A stretch of DNA of 64,000 nucleotides from Candidatus Poribacteria bacterium (GTDB lineage: Bacteria > Poribacteria > WGA-4E > PCPOR2b), in contig OZ244950.1 in assembly GCA_965222435.1 (NCBI GenBank), positions 4,075,983-4,139,982 on the forward strand, read 5' to 3'. The notes below the pieces were generated by a model. The model did no database searches. It saw only the letters and a list, made by a program, of their open reading frames with translations, and was not told the DNA's origin. Position numbers and translations under genes: made by a program. Below are positions 29,574-37,384 of this stretch, piece after piece. Positions within the stretch are counted from its first letter, which is position 1. Each line of letters starts with the position of its first letter.

Positions 29574-30257
29574 TTAGGGATCTTGATTCTCAGGATGGAC
29601 TTTGGTTTTCAATGCCGTAAGATCTGCCTCGACCTTTTCGTTGTTCTCAAGTTCATGAAACTTCTGCTCAAGGTCATCACCTTGTGTCAACTCAGCCAAC
29701 GCTTCCGCATGCACTTCGAGATCGCGAACACGATCAACTAACCGATCGTAAGCATCAAATGCGGTGGTGTCAACGACTGTATCAGCCGGTGACGTCGCGC
29801 CGACAGTGGACTGCAACACCCCTAAACTTTCAGCGGCAGCCAATTTCGCAGTTTGATAGCGCGTCGTGTCTAGCTTGGTCTCTAACGTTTTCAAACTGGA
29901 CTTGAGAGAGTCGATGATCTCCTGCTGCGTCTCGATCTGCTCACGATACAGGTCTGCCTTGTTTGCATGCTCACCTTTGCGGGTGAGTGCCCGGCGAGCG
30001 AGATCTTCCTCCCCTTTTTTCAAGGCGAAAACCGCTTTCTTCTCCCACCTTTTGGCTTCAATTCCGTGCGCGTCGATCTCCCGTTCTATCAACTTGAGAT
30101 CGGCAATCGCCCCCGCGATTAAAGCCTTTACATGGCGCACGTTTTGGCGCATCTCTTCCACCATCAGACCGCGTGTTTTGCGCGTATCTTCCGCTTTCTC
30201 TAGGAGATCGTTCACATGCGATCTCACAATGAGCTTGGCTCGATTTAACGTTTGCAC
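29574..30257 (-). CDS. PspA/IM30 family protein (copy 2)
   Basis: MQTLNRAKLIVRSHVNDLLEKAEDTRK…; PspA-like coiled-coil. Confidence 0.75.
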   Translation of the reverse strand: MQTLNRAKLIVRSHVNDLLEKAEDTRKTRGLMVEEMRQNVRHVKALIAGAIADLKLIEREIDAHGIEAKRWEKKAVFALKKGEEDLARRALTRKGEHANKADLYREQIETQQEIIDSLKSSLKTLETKLDTTRYQTAKLAAAESLGVLQSTVGATSPADTVVDTTAFDAYDRLVDRVRDLEVHAEALAELTQGDDLEQKFHELENNEKVEADLTALKTKVHPENQDP

Positions 30258-30420
30258 AGTTCAGTTCCTCCTTGTAACATTGTTAGACATCAAAATGATT
30301 AACTCAATTGTGTCTGACAGGAGGCTACAAGGATATTGCCATTATAGAAGGTGAAACATGAAGCCAATGTACATTGGCTTCATCAGTTCAATGAACCAAT
30401 CAACTAAAATCTTAAAAAAA

Positions 30421-31010
30421 TGGAGGTGGCGGGACACGTTAATCCCCCGGTTTCCCAGAGGCGTGGACTATATCTTCATCCAACCAAAATGATGGAGCCT
30501 AGCGTATTATAGGAGACCTAGATTTGTCGCTGACATTATCTCCTATCATTACAGTCTCTACAGGACCATACAATCCCTCGGTATTGCCATAAGATGTCTC
30601 CATCTCTTAGGTTTCACCGATGTAAGCTAGATTTAATCGAGGAGGTTGCCCTCCAAGTCGACCAAACTGATCGAACCCGCGTCCGAGAACACTTCAATAA
30701 AGGCTACTACATGCTTAGCATAAGTTTTAGTGTTTCGTCCACAGGACTCACTTATGCAGGATTCACCGCGGACTATCTCAAGTTAATTCTCGCGCCATGC
30801 CCCTTGAGAACAAGTAAGGCGCATAGCCCGTTTGTTGACGTCGGGCTAACTCGACGGGACCGCAAATTAGCCGGACGAGCCACTTTATTAAGCGGCTAGA
30901 GCCAATTCTTCATCGGCAATTAAATTGTTTCCGCCTGTTTAACGAGGCCTGCGGAGACCTCGGCATGCAACCTTTATGTCATCTACTCTCGTCGAAACCT
31001 TTTCACCCCC
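30421..31010 (-). ncRNA. ssrA: tmRNA (ssrA) gene interrupted by a group I intron in the T-loop. 5' exon 30670-31010, intron 30435-30669, 3' exon 30421-30434. The CCA end is not encoded
   Basis: Reverse strand reads 5'-GGGGGTGAAAAGGTTTCGACGAGAG…GGTTGCATGCCGAGG…GCCTCGTTAAACAGGCGGAAACAATTTAATT-GCCGATGAAGAATTGGCTCTAGCCGCTTAATAA…CTAAAACTTATGCTAAGCATGTAGTAGCC…GGACGCGGGTTCGAT. This tracks E. coli tmRNA block by block, with a tag reading frame ending …ALAA-TAA-TAA. The T-stem 3' strand, acceptor strand and discriminator (TCCCGC-CACCTCC-A, with the G3·U pair) sit 235 nt further on. Confidence 0.85.
30435..30669 (-). other. group I intron (235 nt) inserted in the tmRNA T-loop
   Basis: 5' exon ends in U, which pairs with G of the intron guide sequence GGTCGA against exon TCGAT. 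P2 hairpin GGAGG-GCAA-CCTCC. R-like element GTAGAGACTGTAA and the conserved S/P7 element AAGATATAGTCC. Intron ends in G. Joining the exons regenerates the canonical T-arm GCGGG-TTCGATT-CCCGC. Confidence 0.75.
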
Positions 31011-31040
31011 GTATGTAAGTAGGTAACTATCCCGATTTTT

Positions 31041-31487
31041 CTATTTGCTCAACAACTCAATAACCTTGGCAATGCCTAAACAAAGCACACCAAGAGTACA
31101 GAAATAAAACGTCATACCAAGTGCTGTTACAACCCCGCCAAGAGACAATTCTGCCGTTGGAGAAGAAGAGCTGGACGATACAGATTGACTGAATAAGATA
31201 AGCATAGCTATTCCTGCGATAACCCCGAAAATTACTGATAGTATACCGATTATGCGTAATGCCTTAGCTATAGGTAGACTTTTCGTGGGGCCATCATTGA
31301 TACTTTCTGCCGATTCGGAAATAGAAGCCTTAATCATAAGTTCTGCGGCTTCGTCATCAATGCTTTCCGCTGATTCGGGAACAGAATTACTTGCCCCGCA
31401 GTTTCGGCATTCGGCAGCCTCACCAACTTTCAAGAACCTAACAGCAATGTCTTCGCCACAGTTTTTACACTGAAATTTCAAAGCCAT
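31041..31487 (-). CDS. hypothetical membrane protein with N-terminal zinc ribbon
   Basis: CKNCGEDI…CRNCG Cys4 motif, acidic linker, two C-terminal TM helices, Ser-rich tract. Confidence 0.4.
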   Translation of the reverse strand: MALKFQCKNCGEDIAVRFLKVGEAAECRNCGASNSVPESAESIDDEAAELMIKASISESAESINDGPTKSLPIAKALRIIGILSVIFGVIAGIAMLILFSQSVSSSSSSPTAELSLGGVVTALGMTFYFCTLGVLCLGIAKVIELLSK

Positions 31488-31528: not shown

Positions 31529-31993
31529 CTACCGAAGATACGATTGGATTGCCCGTTGATCTGCTTCCCTCCGCATATCTTCGCGCTTGTCGTAATCGTG
31601 CTTACCACGCGCCACCGCAATTTCGACCTTTACCTTGCCGTTACTGAAATAAGCCTTCGTTGGAACAATCGTCATGCCGGTAGATCGAGTTTTTCCCTCG
31701 AGCTGCTTAATCTCTCGACGGTTCAACAGGAGCTTCCGTTTCCGCTTCGGCTCATGATTCTCGCGATTGCCTTGCTCGTAAGGACCGATATGGGCATCAA
31801 TCAAAAAGACCTCCCCTCCATCAACACGAGCGTAGCTATCAGTCAAATTCATCCTGCCAGTACGAATCGCCTTGACTTCCGTTCCCTGAAGCACCATCCC
31901 AGCCTCGAAACGATCCATCAAGTGATAATCGTATCGCGCTTTCTTATTTGTAGCAACTGGACCCGTGGTCGCAACAGACTTCGCATCTTTCAT
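31529..31993 (-). CDS. smpB: SsrA-binding protein SmpB
   Basis: NKKARYDYHLMDRFEAGMVLQGTEVKAIR… matches SmpB family across its length. Internal Met chosen as start. About 0.5 kb from ssrA. Confidence 0.85.
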   Translation of the reverse strand: MKDAKSVATTGPVATNKKARYDYHLMDRFEAGMVLQGTEVKAIRTGRMNLTDSYARVDGGEVFLIDAHIGPYEQGNRENHEPKRKRKLLLNRREIKQLEGKTRSTGMTIVPTKAYFSNGKVKVEIAVARGKHDYDKREDMRREADQRAIQSYLR

Positions 31994-34027: not shown

Positions 34028-37000
34028 ATGAATAGACGATTTTTTCGTGGCATCTGGTATGCGATCATGATCGGTCTTACCGGTGGCGCACTCAGCGTAG
34101 CTGCGGCCGCCTCTCAGTCATCAGAAGGAAACGATATACACTATTGCGCTGTTATTGATAGTCAGTCGAACACACAGCATTCAGACCAATTCTCCAACCG
34201 CAATTATGCCCGATCCGCTGCGGCGAGTGTGAATTCCGGCGAACCCCGCACAGTGCGAATGATTTACTTCACTCCCAAGGGTCGTCCCTATCGTGCTGAT
34301 ATCATTCAGCAGATGAAAAATGGGATCCGCAGAATTCAGACTTTCTATGCCGAACAGATGGAGACACACGGCTACGGGCAGACAACCTTCCGCGTTGAGA
34401 CCGACTCCCAAGGCGAGCCGATAGTCCATCGTGTGGAGGGGCGACACACCAATCGCCGCTATCTTGATGAAACGGACGATACTGTGTATGCCGAGATCGG
34501 GGAAAGGTTCGACTTTTCTGCGAACGTTTATCTCATCTTTATTGATAATAGTATCAATGCAATTAATATTGGCAATAGAAATTTCGCAGGTGTCGGAGAC
34601 AGAGGCGGCAAAAATAGCGGCTATGCGTTGATTGCTGGCAGATTTAATCGGGGGTTGGTGATACATGAACTGGGACACGCCTTCGGACTGCAGCACGATT
34701 TCAGCAACAGTGCGTATATCATGTCGTATGGCAAAAGACCAAATCAGTTATCCTCATGCAGTGCCAAATTCCTGTCCACGCATTCCTATTTCAATCCCGA
34801 TACTTCAATTGCAGAAAGACGTCCACCAACCATCAAACTCATTTCATCGCGTAGATATCCGGCGGGTTCAAGGAGCACCCCGATTCACCTCGAAGTCAGC
34901 GATTCAGAAGGACTTCACCAGGTACTCCTATGCGTTACAACAAGAGGATTTCACGAGGCTGCCGGATACATGGAAGTAAAGGAATGTCGTGAATTGAGGG
35001 GCAAAAGAGATGCCGTCGTTAGATTCGACTATGATGGCGTTATTCCGTCTAATCGCTCTACAAGCCTTTCCAATCCTAGGGCGCATCCGATTCGTATCGA
35101 AGCCGTTGATATGAATGGGAATATGAGCCGAACCGATTTTATACTGTTTTCTGAAACGCTTCAGCCGCTGTCGAAAATCTCAGGAGATAACCAGCGTGGC
35201 TTACCCAATACACCGCTACCCATCCCACTTATCGTTGAAGTGCGGGAGGTGAACGACGGTTCTGCACGCAGGAAAGTTCCCGTCACTTTTACCGTCACCG
35301 CAGGCGATGGATCGCTCAGTGTGAAGCGCACTGAAACTGATAAAAATGGACGGGCACAGAGCACACTCACACTAGGACCAAATCTGGGAACAAACACCGT
35401 TGAGGTGTCTGCTGCGGGATTTACAGTCACCTTTAACGCCGTGGCGGAAGCTGCGGTACACATTCCCGATGCCAACCTTCGCACTGCGATTGAGACCGCT
35501 CTCAAGGTAGCACCGGGCGGACCGATAGCCCCGGTAGAGATAGAAACCTTGCGATCCCTTGAGGTAAGGGAGACGACGATCCGTAATTTGACCGGGTTGG
35601 AGCTAGCAACCAATCTGAGCGATTTGAGACTGGTGGAAAACGGTATAGTAGATGTGTCGGTACTTTCGGGTTTGACCAACCTGACAAGGCTAAATCTTGG
35701 GGGCAATTCGATATCGGACCTCTCACCTCTTGAGGGATTAGCAAATCTGACAGAGCTGCTTCTTGGAAACAACAACATCTCAGACATCTCACCCTTGTTA
35801 ACCAATACCGGATTGGGGAGTGGAGATACTGTTAATTTGCGGGGAAACCCCCTGAGTTATCAATCTATCCATACACATATTCCAACCCTCCAGAGCAGAG
35901 AGGTTACGGTGGAGTTTGACAACCGAACGCCTACGCCCCCTCTGAAAATTTCAGGTGATAACCAACAGGGCACCCCCGGCGCAGCACTCGATCGACCGTT
36001 TGTCGTTGAAGTGCAGGATGGAGCGAGCACCCCATTTGAGGGGGTTCCAGTCACATTCACCGTCACCGCCGGCGGTGGGACAGTCCAGCCAGAAACCACT
36101 TTGACCGATCAAAACGGCAGGGCAGAAAGTACCCTTACCCTAGGCATCGAGGCAGTTACTAACACCGTTGACGTGAGTGTTGAAGGAATTTCGGAGCGGG
36201 AGACTTTTAACACAGCTATCGAAATTGAGTTTGACCTCTCCATACCATCAAACATCAGCCTGATTCACGTCCCCCTAAAGGTGACAACCGTTGACGGTGT
36301 GGCACAAAATATCACATCTATCGCCGAACTCTACGATGCACTCGGTAGCGCGTCAAAAATCAACTTCCTCATCACCTATGACTCACAAGCTCAAGAATGG
36401 CATAGCTATTTCGGTACTGCCGACACAGGCACTTCTGCCGACAAGGCATTGACCGATGACATGGGGATTATCGCCGGTATGATAGCCTCAGCTTCTATCC
36501 GTCTGAGTGGAAATCCCCTAGGGACAAACGGAAACAGTACCATCACCTTAAACCAAGGTCTCAATCTTGTGGGGCTGCCATTGAGAGATTCAAGAATAAC
36601 CCGTGTGAACCACCTGCTTGCGCTCGACGGGATTGGGGGTAACGTCCCTGCGATTATCCTCACCGATAGCGGAGAGTTTAAGTCGGTCGGACAGGTAGAC
36701 GACCCCAGTAATATACCCATCATTGGAGGACAATCCTTTATCCTGAACGCTCAGGGGGCAGCGACGGTTGAAATTTCCGGCGAGGGATGGTATAACAACT
36801 CTGCAATCGCCACCGCACCACCCGTAGGGAATGCAGATTTGCATTCCTCAATTACACGTATCAAAGTAACCAATACCACTCCCGTCTTGGCGTTGAGAGG
36901 TTCAATCGTTGATGAAAAAGTGGGCTTAAAGATGGAAGGTTTCCGTGTAACCGTCAAGAACCTTTCAACAGGCAGAGAAATTACCACTGTTACAGGTACT

Positions 37001-37384
37001 GATGAGATAGGTTATCGAATTACCACCGTTGACATAAAAACAGGACGAGCGGCTACGATTGGGGATATCCTTGAAATCTCGGCTGAGTCTTCCGATCCGT
37101 TAATCGGTGTGCAGCCGTTGTGGTATACCATAACCGCCAAAGATGTGAAGCGGAGTCAGATTCAATTGCCGGGACTGGTCGCTTACGAGATACCAACAGA
37201 AACGGAACTGTTGTCCAACTACCCAAATCCGTTTAACCCGGAGACATGGATTCCGTATCGGTTGGCACAGGACGCTTTTGTTACCCTGACAATCTACGAC
37301 GTGAACGGTCGGATTATCCGTACCCTCGACGTGGGGCATCGGATTGCTGCGGCCTACGAAAGTCGGTCAAAGGCAATCCGCTAG
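34028..37384 (+). CDS. large secreted metzincin-type zinc metalloprotease with Ig-like (Big) domains, leucine-rich repeats and a T9SS C-terminal sorting domain. The reading frame is interrupted by an in-frame TAG at 37382-37384 inside the sorting domain and would otherwise run to 37489
   Basis: Signal peptide; HELGHAFGLQHD (HExxHxxGxxH metzincin motif); repeated SGDNQ…FTVTAG Big-like modules; LRR tract (LTNLTRLNLGGNSISDLSPLEGLANLTELLLGNNNISDISPL); C-terminus NYPNPFNPETWIPYRLAQDAFVTLTIYDVNGRIIRTLDVGH…ESRSKAIR[TAG]DGKNRLGEPVTSGIYFYALTAGDYFATRKMVILK matches the T9SS/Por secretion tail. Confidence 0.7.
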   Translation: MNRRFFRGIWYAIMIGLTGGALSVAAAASQSSEGNDIHYCAVIDSQSNTQHSDQFSNRNYARSAAASVNSGEPRTVRMIYFTPKGRPYRADIIQQMKNGIRRIQTFYAEQMETHGYGQTTFRVETDSQGEPIVHRVEGRHTNRRYLDETDDTVYAEIGERFDFSANVYLIFIDNSINAINIGNRNFAGVGDRGGKNSGYALIAGRFNRGLVIHELGHAFGLQHDFSNSAYIMSYGKRPNQLSSCSAKFLSTHSYFNPDTSIAERRPPTIKLISSRRYPAGSRSTPIHLEVSDSEGLHQVLLCVTTRGFHEAAGYMEVKECRELRGKRDAVVRFDYDGVIPSNRSTSLSNPRAHPIRIEAVDMNGNMSRTDFILFSETLQPLSKISGDNQRGLPNTPLPIPLIVEVREVNDGSARRKVPVTFTVTAGDGSLSVKRTETDKNGRAQSTLTLGPNLGTNTVEVSAAGFTVTFNAVAEAAVHIPDANLRTAIETALKVAPGGPIAPVEIETLRSLEVRETTIRNLTGLELATNLSDLRLVENGIVDVSVLSGLTNLTRLNLGGNSISDLSPLEGLANLTELLLGNNNISDISPLLTNTGLGSGDTVNLRGNPLSYQSIHTHIPTLQSREVTVEFDNRTPTPPLKISGDNQQGTPGAALDRPFVVEVQDGASTPFEGVPVTFTVTAGGGTVQPETTLTDQNGRAESTLTLGIEAVTNTVDVSVEGISERETFNTAIEIEFDLSIPSNISLIHVPLKVTTVDGVAQNITSIAELYDALGSASKINFLITYDSQAQEWHSYFGTADTGTSADKALTDDMGIIAGMIASASIRLSGNPLGTNGNSTITLNQGLNLVGLPLRDSRITRVNHLLALDGIGGNVPAIILTDSGEFKSVGQVDDPSNIPIIGGQSFILNAQGAATVEISGEGWYNNSAIATAPPVGNADLHSSITRIKVTNTTPVLALRGSIVDEKVGLKMEGFRVTVKNLSTGREITTVTGTDEIGYRITTVDIKTGRAATIGDILEISAESSDPLIGVQPLWYTITAKDVKRSQIQLPGLVAYEIPTETELLSNYPNPFNPETWIPYRLAQDAFVTLTIYDVNGRIIRTLDVGHRIAAAYESRSKAIR

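Follow-up and report, generated by a model that had tools for sequence, protein, structure and literature searches.

Within the 64-kb stretch of DNA analyzed here (hereafter the window), one ssrA gene is evident. It belongs to a sponge-associated Candidatus Poribacteria genome and is very probably of the known "intron form," wherein a group I intron located in the T-loop would splice itself out to yield a functional tmRNA. A tmRNA split in this manner had been proposed in an earlier note on this DNA, and the proposal is borne out by matches to covariance models of the tmRNA family (RF00023), of group I introns in general (RF00028), and of related T-loop introns (model R1), as well as by splicing in silico and by nucleotide covariation among 15 introns. 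All of the minus-strand features described in the earlier note are present and correctly placed to the base.

Results

Organization of the interrupted tmRNA gene

The complete intron-form gene occupies 590 bp and consists of a long first exon, an intron, and a short second exon (Table 1). The acceptor stem formed by its two ends (GGGGGUG/CACCUCC) has 7 bp and carries the G3·U70 pair that confers alanine identity. The ssrA coding sequence does not include CCA, and TTTTTTT is located directly after the discriminator A. A consensus scan for promoters and terminators spanning 30250..31150 yielded no sites.

The tmRNA covariance model RF00023 matches positions 31002..30668 of the minus strand with a score of 139.4 bits (E = 1.7e-54; cut-off 47). 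This alignment stops within the T-loop, after GGACGCGGGUUCGAU, and the final 15 positions of the model, which represent the 3′ strands of the T-stem and the acceptor stem, are deleted. ARAGORN reported no tRNA and no tmRNA in the native 64-kb window. When run with its intron option on the unspliced gene, ARAGORN likewise made no call, which is expected because this option covers introns in the anticodon loop. After deletion in silico of exactly positions 30669..30435, the same program calls a 355-nt tmRNA that has a complete tRNA-like domain and the tag ADEELALAA. Thus, the ARAGORN check suggested in the earlier note is blank for the native gene even with the intron option, but succeeds once the intron is excised exactly. 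The tag, its GCC resume codon, and its tandem TAA stops are as the note had read them, and removal of the 235 nt regenerates the T-arm GCGGG-TTCGATT-CCCGC that it had predicted. The junction predicted for the spliced RNA is ...GGGUUCGAU joined to UCCCGCCACCUCCA (30670 to 30434).

Splicing in silico yields a tmRNA of the standard, one-piece kind, whose elements are colinear with RF00023 positions 1 to 374. This colinear order and the one-piece product rule out a permuted (two-piece) tmRNA gene.

Table 1. Features of the ssrA locus and of its intron (window coordinates; paired cell counts refer to the alignment of 15 introns)
Feature	Coordinates	Strand	Length or sequence	Remarks
ssrA exon 1	30670..31010	−	341 nt; starts GGGGGTGAAAAGGTTTCGAC, ends GGACGCGGGTTCGAT	Acceptor 5′ strand GGGGGUG, tag reading frame, pseudoknot region, T-stem 5′ strand, and T-loop nt 1-6 (GCGGG-UUCGAU)
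Tag reading frame	30885..30917	−	ADEELALAA	Resume codon GCC 30917..30915; stops TAA TAA 30890..30885; ARAGORN tag call
Group I intron	30435..30669	−	235 nt	First nt C 30669; terminal (omega) G 30435
P1	30658..30674	−	Exon UCGAU plus intron C (30674..30669) with guide GGUCGA (30663..30658)	U30670·G30662 wobble at 5′ splice site
P2	30641..30654	−	GGAGG-GCAA-CCUCC	GNRA loop; 5/5 pairs change on both sides, 100% of cells paired
P3	30626..30631 (5′ strand); 30498..30503 (3′ strand)	−	UCUAGC; GCUAGG	4/6 pairs change on both sides, 98.9% paired
P4-P5-P5a-P6 domain	30563..30620	−	P4 UCGGUG/UACCGA; P5 CC/GG; P6 GGG/UCC	
P5a			GAGAUG-GAGA-CAUCUU	GNRA loop; 6/6 pairs with changes on both sides
P7 5′ strand	30552..30558	−	G[A]GACUG, within GUAGAGACUG element	Partner UAGUCC 30470..30465, giving the P3/P7 pseudoknot
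Peripheral hairpin between P7 and P3′ (P7.1/P7.2 region)	30509..30546	−	Stem AUAGGAGA/UCUCCUAU; inner UGUC-AGC-GACA	
P8 hairpin	30479..30496	−	UCCAUC...GUUGGA	One U-U or bulged U here; 5/6 pairs change on both sides
J8/7 and P7 3′ strand	30465..30477	−	GAAGAUAUAGUCC	Matches RF00028 consensus UgAAGAUAUAGUC; invariant in relatives
P9 hairpin	30444..30461	−	CCUCUGG-GAAA-CCGGGGG	GNRA loop; 4 pairs change on both sides; in MFE fold
ssrA exon 2	30421..30434	−	14 nt; TCCCGCCACCTCCA	T-loop nt 7 (U), T-stem 3′ strand CCCGC, acceptor 3′ strand CACCUCC, discriminator A
smpB	31993..31529	−		Pfam PF01668, E = 4e-58; ends 518 nt upstream of ssrA

The earlier note had also placed smpB about 0.5 kb upstream of the tmRNA gene, and the Pfam match agrees with this placement. 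It had further dismissed as spurious a 101-aa open reading frame (30594..30899) on the plus strand that runs across the gene. This reading frame exists but has no Pfam match, and we agree that it is spurious. Look-ups of exact protein matches for its product, for SmpB, and for the CoA-transferase-like protein encoded nearby yielded no recorded entry.

Boundaries and group I identity of the intron

The intron is inserted at T-loop internucleotide position 7, between the sixth and seventh nucleotides of the loop. Its splice sites fall between 30670 and 30669 and between 30435 and 30434, such that the GCGGG-UUCGAU of exon 1 precedes the intron and the U-CCCGC of exon 2 follows it. Removal of 30669..30435 is the sole cut that gives the T-loop its 7 nt (UUCGAUU) and at the same time keeps a U at position −1 and a G at the intron terminus. 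Given that no other cut restores the loop under these constraints, the boundaries are unambiguous.

The general group I model RF00028 (Intron_gpI) aligns from end to end (model positions 1-253) over 30679..30444 with a score of 35.8-35.9 bits, corresponding to E = 9.5e-8 in a local search and E = 1.7e-5 when both strands of the whole window are searched. Apart from this match and that to the tmRNA model, the window gives no Rfam match with E < 0.05. The Infernal and Rfam comparison suggested in the earlier note recovers the tmRNA and a full-length group I alignment, but the latter score lies under the Rfam gathering cut-off of 50, such that with Rfam alone the check is only half successful. 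A threshold of 20 bits has been used in published work on bacterial tRNA introns.

Because the RF00028 score is below the gathering cut-off, we sought independent evidence from a family-specific model and from covariation. The covariance model R1 was built from five T-loop introns (two from Omnitrophota, one from Elusimicrobia, and two from metagenome contigs), with both the window sequence and its close relatives excluded from the training set. R1 finds a single match in the window, at 30677..30429, that covers model positions 1-270 of 270 with a score of 181.7 bits and E = 3.7e-58. The calibration of R1 was shortened, which makes this E-value rough and leaves the bit score unaffected. Judged by these model matches and by the covariation described below, the 235-nt segment is a group I intron residing in the T-loop of a tmRNA gene.

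Secondary structure model

A P1-P9 structure was worked out manually, guided by the Rfam alignment and by the sequence itself (Table 1). The intron hallmarks listed in the earlier note are all found, including the internal guide sequence GGTCGA, the P2 hairpin with its GCAA loop, GTAGAGACTG, GAAGATATAGTCC, and the terminal G. Three GNRA loops (L2, L5a, and L9) cap helices of the intron. The element composed of J8/7 and the 3′ strand of P7 is the most conserved part of the group I core. Inspection revealed no convincing P10, the helix in which the guide region would pair with the 3′ exon.

The minimum-free-energy (MFE) fold of the intron alone (z = −2.46) contains P2, P3, P4, P5a, and P9 as well as the peripheral hairpin. 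Folding, which the earlier note had put forward as a means to confirm P1-P9, thus recovers much of the expected structure, but P1 faces competition. In the MFE fold, an alternative helix of 10 bp rivals P1, wherein the guide GGUCGA, along with the P1 loop, pairs with UCGAUUAAAU located just after P2. This pairing can sequester the internal guide.

Covariation among related introns

The proposed helices were evaluated using an alignment of 15 distinct introns, from which endonuclease inserts were trimmed and in which 8 and 6 exon bases were retained at the two ends. Across the 65 pairs of 12 helices, standard pairing is seen in 92.9% of cells, and offsetting the 3′ partners by 1-3 columns as a control lowers this value to 34-49%. 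Similarly, 36 of the 65 pairs change on both sides, compared to 11-22 for the offset versions, and none of 500 shuffles matched the true alignment by any of five measures.

Compensatory changes occur in P2, P3, P4, P5a, P8, and P9. For example, P4 is 98.9% paired and includes three pairs with changes on both sides. Five of the six pairs in P7 never vary, and so this helix offers no covariation evidence either way. The P1 helix covaries with the exonic T-loop, as is seen with UCAAU and the guide GGUUGA in L010 and with GCGAU and the guide GGUUGC in L008, and the U·G pair at the splice site is constant in all 15 introns. This pattern of substitutions indicates an intact catalytic core (P3-P9 and J8/7) that evolves by compensatory change.

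Relatives of the intron and their genomic context

We scanned public genomes and metagenomes with a pattern in which the conserved J8/7-P7 element is joined to exon 2. The scan returned 17 loci, comprising 7 species representatives of Candidatus Poribacteria, 2 Omnitrophota, 1 Elusimicrobia, and 7 metagenome contigs, and gave no matches in viral contigs. At all 17 loci the insert lies after G(C/T)GGGU(U/G)C(G/A)AU and before UCCC(G/A)C, and hence at the T-loop subsite that is also occupied in the window. After splicing in silico, ARAGORN recognizes a tmRNA in 12 of 18 sequences (the window included), and the unspliced form is never called. The tag ADEELALAA is also reported by ARAGORN for loci L002-L006, L009, and L012 when spliced in this way. 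None of the 17 fetched loci carries an intron identical to that of the window (nearest, 95.7%), and the intron is 234 nt long in three sister species.

Approximately 8 kb surrounding ssrA is colinear with loci from six Poribacteria metagenome-assembled genomes (MAGs), at 84-88% nucleotide identity. Besides ssrA and smpB, this syntenic region contains genes for flotillin-like, PspA-like, and CoA-transferase-like proteins, and the adjacency of smpB and ssrA is kept throughout the syntenic Poribacteria loci. On the basis of this colinearity, we assign the window to a Candidatus Poribacteria genome.

In comparisons with the six syntenic species, identities are 92.7-95.6% for exon 1 and 93.2-95.7% for the intron. 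Among more distant carriers, the corresponding values for exon 1 and intron are 82% and 89% for L007 and 84% and 87% for L012. The exon and intron identities fall together, which fits vertical coinheritance with selection on both parts. The intron in Poribacteria thus appears to have been inherited vertically with its host gene, and these identities do not suggest that it spread horizontally in recent times.

Relatives with endonuclease genes and a variable periphery

Some relatives of the window intron carry a protein-coding gene. The introns of L008 (Elusimicrobia), L010 (Omnitrophota), L015, and L017 are 638-709 nt long, with an additional 386-402 nt inserted into the loop of the hairpin that separates P7 from P3′. 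These inserts encode single-motif LAGLIDADG proteins (Pfam PF14528), and a LAGLIDADG reading frame is located on the opposite strand in L014. These endonuclease-bearing members have the same core, insertion site, and hairpin as the window intron, and also share with it the flanking stem sequence GAUAGGAG.../...CUCCUAUAA. They differ in that their loop holds a single-motif open reading frame of 134-162 codons, whereas the loop in the window is 22 nt.

The window intron has no homing endonuclease reading frame of the kind that marks a mobile intron; its longest open frame in the sense direction is 35 codons. A tblastn search of the relatives' LAGLIDADG proteins against the window intron produced nothing significant (best E = 0.31), and DNA alignment of the window loop region with the 3′ ends of the relatives' reading frames gave only about 52-60% identity. 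Loops of intermediate length are present in L004, L007, and L011, and a stretch in L011 (ETEKAYI) resembles the N-terminus of the endonuclease reading frame (E = 0.13). Loss of an endonuclease gene from an ancestor of the window intron is a plausible reading of these loops.

The periphery of the intron also varies. Introns of tRNA-Leu and tRNA-Ile belong to subgroup IC3, and tmRNA introns are assigned to IA3, as is the case for that of Clostridium botulinum. The presence of both P7.1 and P7.2 is a trait of subgroup IA. Two hairpins are found in this region in L001, L010, L015, and L008, the first of them after AGAGACU. The window has a single hairpin (30546..30509), and the first (P7.1) is absent from the group formed by L011 and Poribacteria, the window included.

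Discussion

Relation to known tmRNA introns

The gene form, insertion subsite, mechanism, and phylum described here are already published. In the 2025 expansion of the tmRNA database, three gene forms are distinguished (standard, permuted, and intron), and 883 unique intron-form sequences from 21 phyla are catalogued, most of them with the intron at T-loop position 7 (PMC11915505). Its Supplementary Table 2 lists 114 genomes for Poribacteria, with 88 standard, 1 permuted, and 2 position-7 intron forms, along with 18 intron forms for Omnitrophota and 5 for Elusimicrobiota (PMC11915505). These numbers run counter to the view expressed in the earlier note that T-loop introns in tmRNA genes are rare. 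The same note had regarded the intron as unusually small, but catalogued intron-form genes go down to 545 bp (PMC11915505), compared to 590 bp here, and the sister-species introns mentioned above are one nucleotide shorter. The window intron is shorter than the founding-set mean of 293 bp (PMC11915505), yet it is not the shortest. A text search of the literature for Poribacteria together with "group I intron" turned up no dedicated study.

The catalogued position-7 introns share with the window intron the host gene, the subsite, the U·G wobble at position −1 in P1, and the terminal G. They also contain a region of peripheral hairpins separating P7 from P3′, where homing endonuclease genes are located in some members; overall, such genes are present in 4.1% of intron forms and are sited either in the P7.1 region or after P9 (PMC11915505). 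A point of difference is that the window intron has no P7.1, the first of the paired peripheral hairpins.

A close counterpart is the tmRNA intron of Clostridium botulinum (Bacillota), likewise a group I intron in the T-loop of ssrA. That intron is 287 nt long, was studied with a 5′ exon of 338 nt and a 3′ exon of 24 nt, and is reported to self-splice (PMC2729099). Its exons are nearly equal in size to those of the window (341 and 14 nt, plus tail), whereas its intron is 52 nt longer.

Bacterial tRNA introns resemble the window intron in several respects. They are about 200-250 nt long, mostly lack open reading frames, self-splice, and reside in a loop of a tRNA-shaped RNA; moreover, their short peripheral helices are capped by GNRA tetraloops, and the rules for the U at −1 and the terminal G apply to them as well. 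They differ in that they are located in the anticodon loop, a feature that tmRNA does not have, and hence the introns of tmRNA genes are found in the T-loop.

Proposed splicing pathway

By analogy with these introns, catalysis and the order of the splicing steps would be as follows. Transcription of the minus strand would generate a precursor of roughly 590 nt, in which the 235-nt segment would fold into a group I ribozyme comprising P1-P9, the P3/P7 pseudoknot, three GNRA loops, and one hairpin between P7 and P3′. In the first step, exogenous guanosine would attack after U30670 of the T-loop (that is, between U30670 and C30669), where this nucleotide forms a U·G wobble with the guide GGUCGA. 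In the second step, the freed 3′-OH of exon 1 would attack after G30435 (between G30435 and U30434), thereby ligating the exons. Ligation would restore the GCGGG-UUCGAUU-CCCGC T-arm and the acceptor stem with its G3·U70 pair to give the 355-nt tmRNA. End processing and addition of the nonencoded CCA would be followed by charging with alanine, and the charged tmRNA, together with the SmpB protein encoded 0.5 kb upstream, would rescue stalled ribosomes by adding the tag (A)ADEELALAA.

Alternative explanations

One alternative accepts the intron as genuine but holds that it does not self-splice autonomously in the cell, wherein loss of P7.1 and of an endonuclease or maturase reading frame may have left it dependent on a host protein or chaperone. 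Several features of the window copy are consistent with this idea, including the missing first peripheral hairpin that is present in L001, L010, L015, and L008, the lack of an open reading frame, and the 10-bp helix that competes with P1 in the MFE fold. However, the core P3-P9 and J8/7 is intact and exhibits compensatory evolution. Moreover, the single-motif LAGLIDADG proteins of the kind encoded by its relatives are endonucleases to our knowledge, and we know of no maturase activity shown for them. Finally, bacterial tRNA and tmRNA introns of similar or smaller size are reported to self-splice (PMC2729099). We therefore view a dependence on host factors as improbable.

The gene might instead be a disrupted pseudogene, in which splicing of the insertion has been lost and stalled ribosomes are rescued through another copy of ssrA or by alternative factors. 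The search for a second ssrA gene covered the 64 kb of the window, within which Rfam sees only a truncated gene and ARAGORN makes no call on the native sequence. Against decay of the gene, its exons and intron are 93-96% identical across species in which the flanking protein genes are 84-88% identical, and every variable helix is maintained by compensatory changes. Likewise, the tag frame, the G3·U70 pair, and both T-arm halves are intact in every Poribacteria copy, and the position beside smpB has been kept. A pseudogene is accordingly a very improbable explanation.

Although tmRNA genes are often integration sites for genomic islands (PMC11915505), the chance that the 235 nt is instead the remnant of an island or mobile element that inserted itself at the 3′ terminus of ssrA and supplied a new 3′ end is close to nil, given that TCCCGCCACCTCCA occurs once in the 64-kb window with no displaced duplicate, that the segment holds no integrase or other open reading frame, that it aligns over its full length to group I introns and matches the family model, and that its boundaries follow the rule for a −1 U and a terminal G exactly.

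Self-splicing of an intron-form tmRNA therefore remains the reading we prefer. A more elaborate version of it can also be entertained, in which the Poribacteria copies constitute a distinct, minimized sublineage (without the endonuclease reading frame, P7.1, and an encoded CCA) that appears to be fixed and to be inherited vertically across a sponge-associated clade, and in which the clade-specific helix between the guide and UCGAUUAAAU could time or regulate the maturation of tmRNA through a switch in folding. We consider this scenario unlikely, though less so than the alternatives above.

Implications

The finding opens no new question, and its practical value is in annotation and in providing well-supported instances within one clade. 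For a gene of this form, ARAGORN misses ssrA, Rfam gives a tmRNA that is truncated at its 3′ end, and a spurious 101-aa reading frame can be called across the gene. As a result of this miss and this truncation, such a genome may be wrongly scored as lacking a tmRNA or as having a defective one. The number of intron-bearing sequences from Poribacteria now stands at 8, compared to 2 in the 2025 catalogue. These 8 examples suggest the vertical persistence of an intron without an open reading frame in a functionally important RNA gene.

A predicted alternative helix competes with P1 in the intron

The 5′ region of the tmRNA (ssrA) intron is consistent with two mutually exclusive structures. The first is P1, wherein the 3′ end of the upstream exon pairs with the internal guide GGUCGA. 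The second is a possible 10-bp helix formed by nucleotides 30666 to 30657 and 30640 to 30631 (minus strand), whose first strand comprises the guide plus a portion of the P1 loop (GUUUGGUCGA) and whose second strand (UCGAUUAAAU) lies directly 3′ of P2. The minimum-free-energy prediction selects this alternative helix over P1. Its core pairing is found in the Poribacteria clade and in the related T-loop intron loci L011, L012, and L014, being kept in L014 with a UUGAC variant, and is missing from loci L001, L008, L010, L015, and L017 among those compared.

Variation among related introns

The LAGLIDADG endonuclease ORF of L014 (OJEP01000103.1; intron coordinates about 565 to 194; tblastn E about 1e-26) is antisense to its tmRNA intron, whereas the corresponding ORFs of L008, L010, L015, and L017 are sense. 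L013 (LQAH01000355.1) and L016 (Ga0070725_10010201) form a divergent sub-group with T-loop introns of 475 to 507 nt, a GUGGG/CCCAC T-stem, a different P1 loop (UUUGAAAAAGGUCGCC), and the tag ANDNFALAA. No long open frame was found on the sense strand of these two introns (maximum 51–57 codons).

Other features of the window

Additional features of the window
Feature	Position	Strand	Remark
148-aa ORF	31041..31487	-	between smpB and ssrA
Perfect palindrome ATGAAGCCAATGTACATTGGCTTCAT	30358..30383		38 nt downstream of ssrA 3′ end
1118-aa secreted-type protein	34028..37384	+	judged by eye only

The 148-aa ORF carries an N-terminal CxxC...CxxC zinc-ribbon-like motif, for which Pfam matches are weak and below cut-off, and C-terminal hydrophobic segments. 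It is lacking at the otherwise syntenic locus L004. The palindrome, which has no following T-run and was not called a terminator by a consensus scan, could mark the transcript end or a processing site. Read by eye only, the 1118-aa protein shows leucine-rich repeats and an HExxH motif like that of zinc metalloproteases, and its C-terminal segment (NYPNPFNPETWIPYRL) looks similar to a type IX secretion sorting domain.

The CCA tail of the tmRNA

The more distantly related genes with the intron (L007, L001, L008, L013, L015, and L016) encode CCA. Past the discriminator of the window ssrA (30421|30420, minus strand), a T-rich stretch is present instead of CCA, as is likewise true of the six closest relatives (L002–L006 and L009). 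Because its CCA is unencoded, the window tmRNA is predicted to depend on a CCA-adding enzyme.
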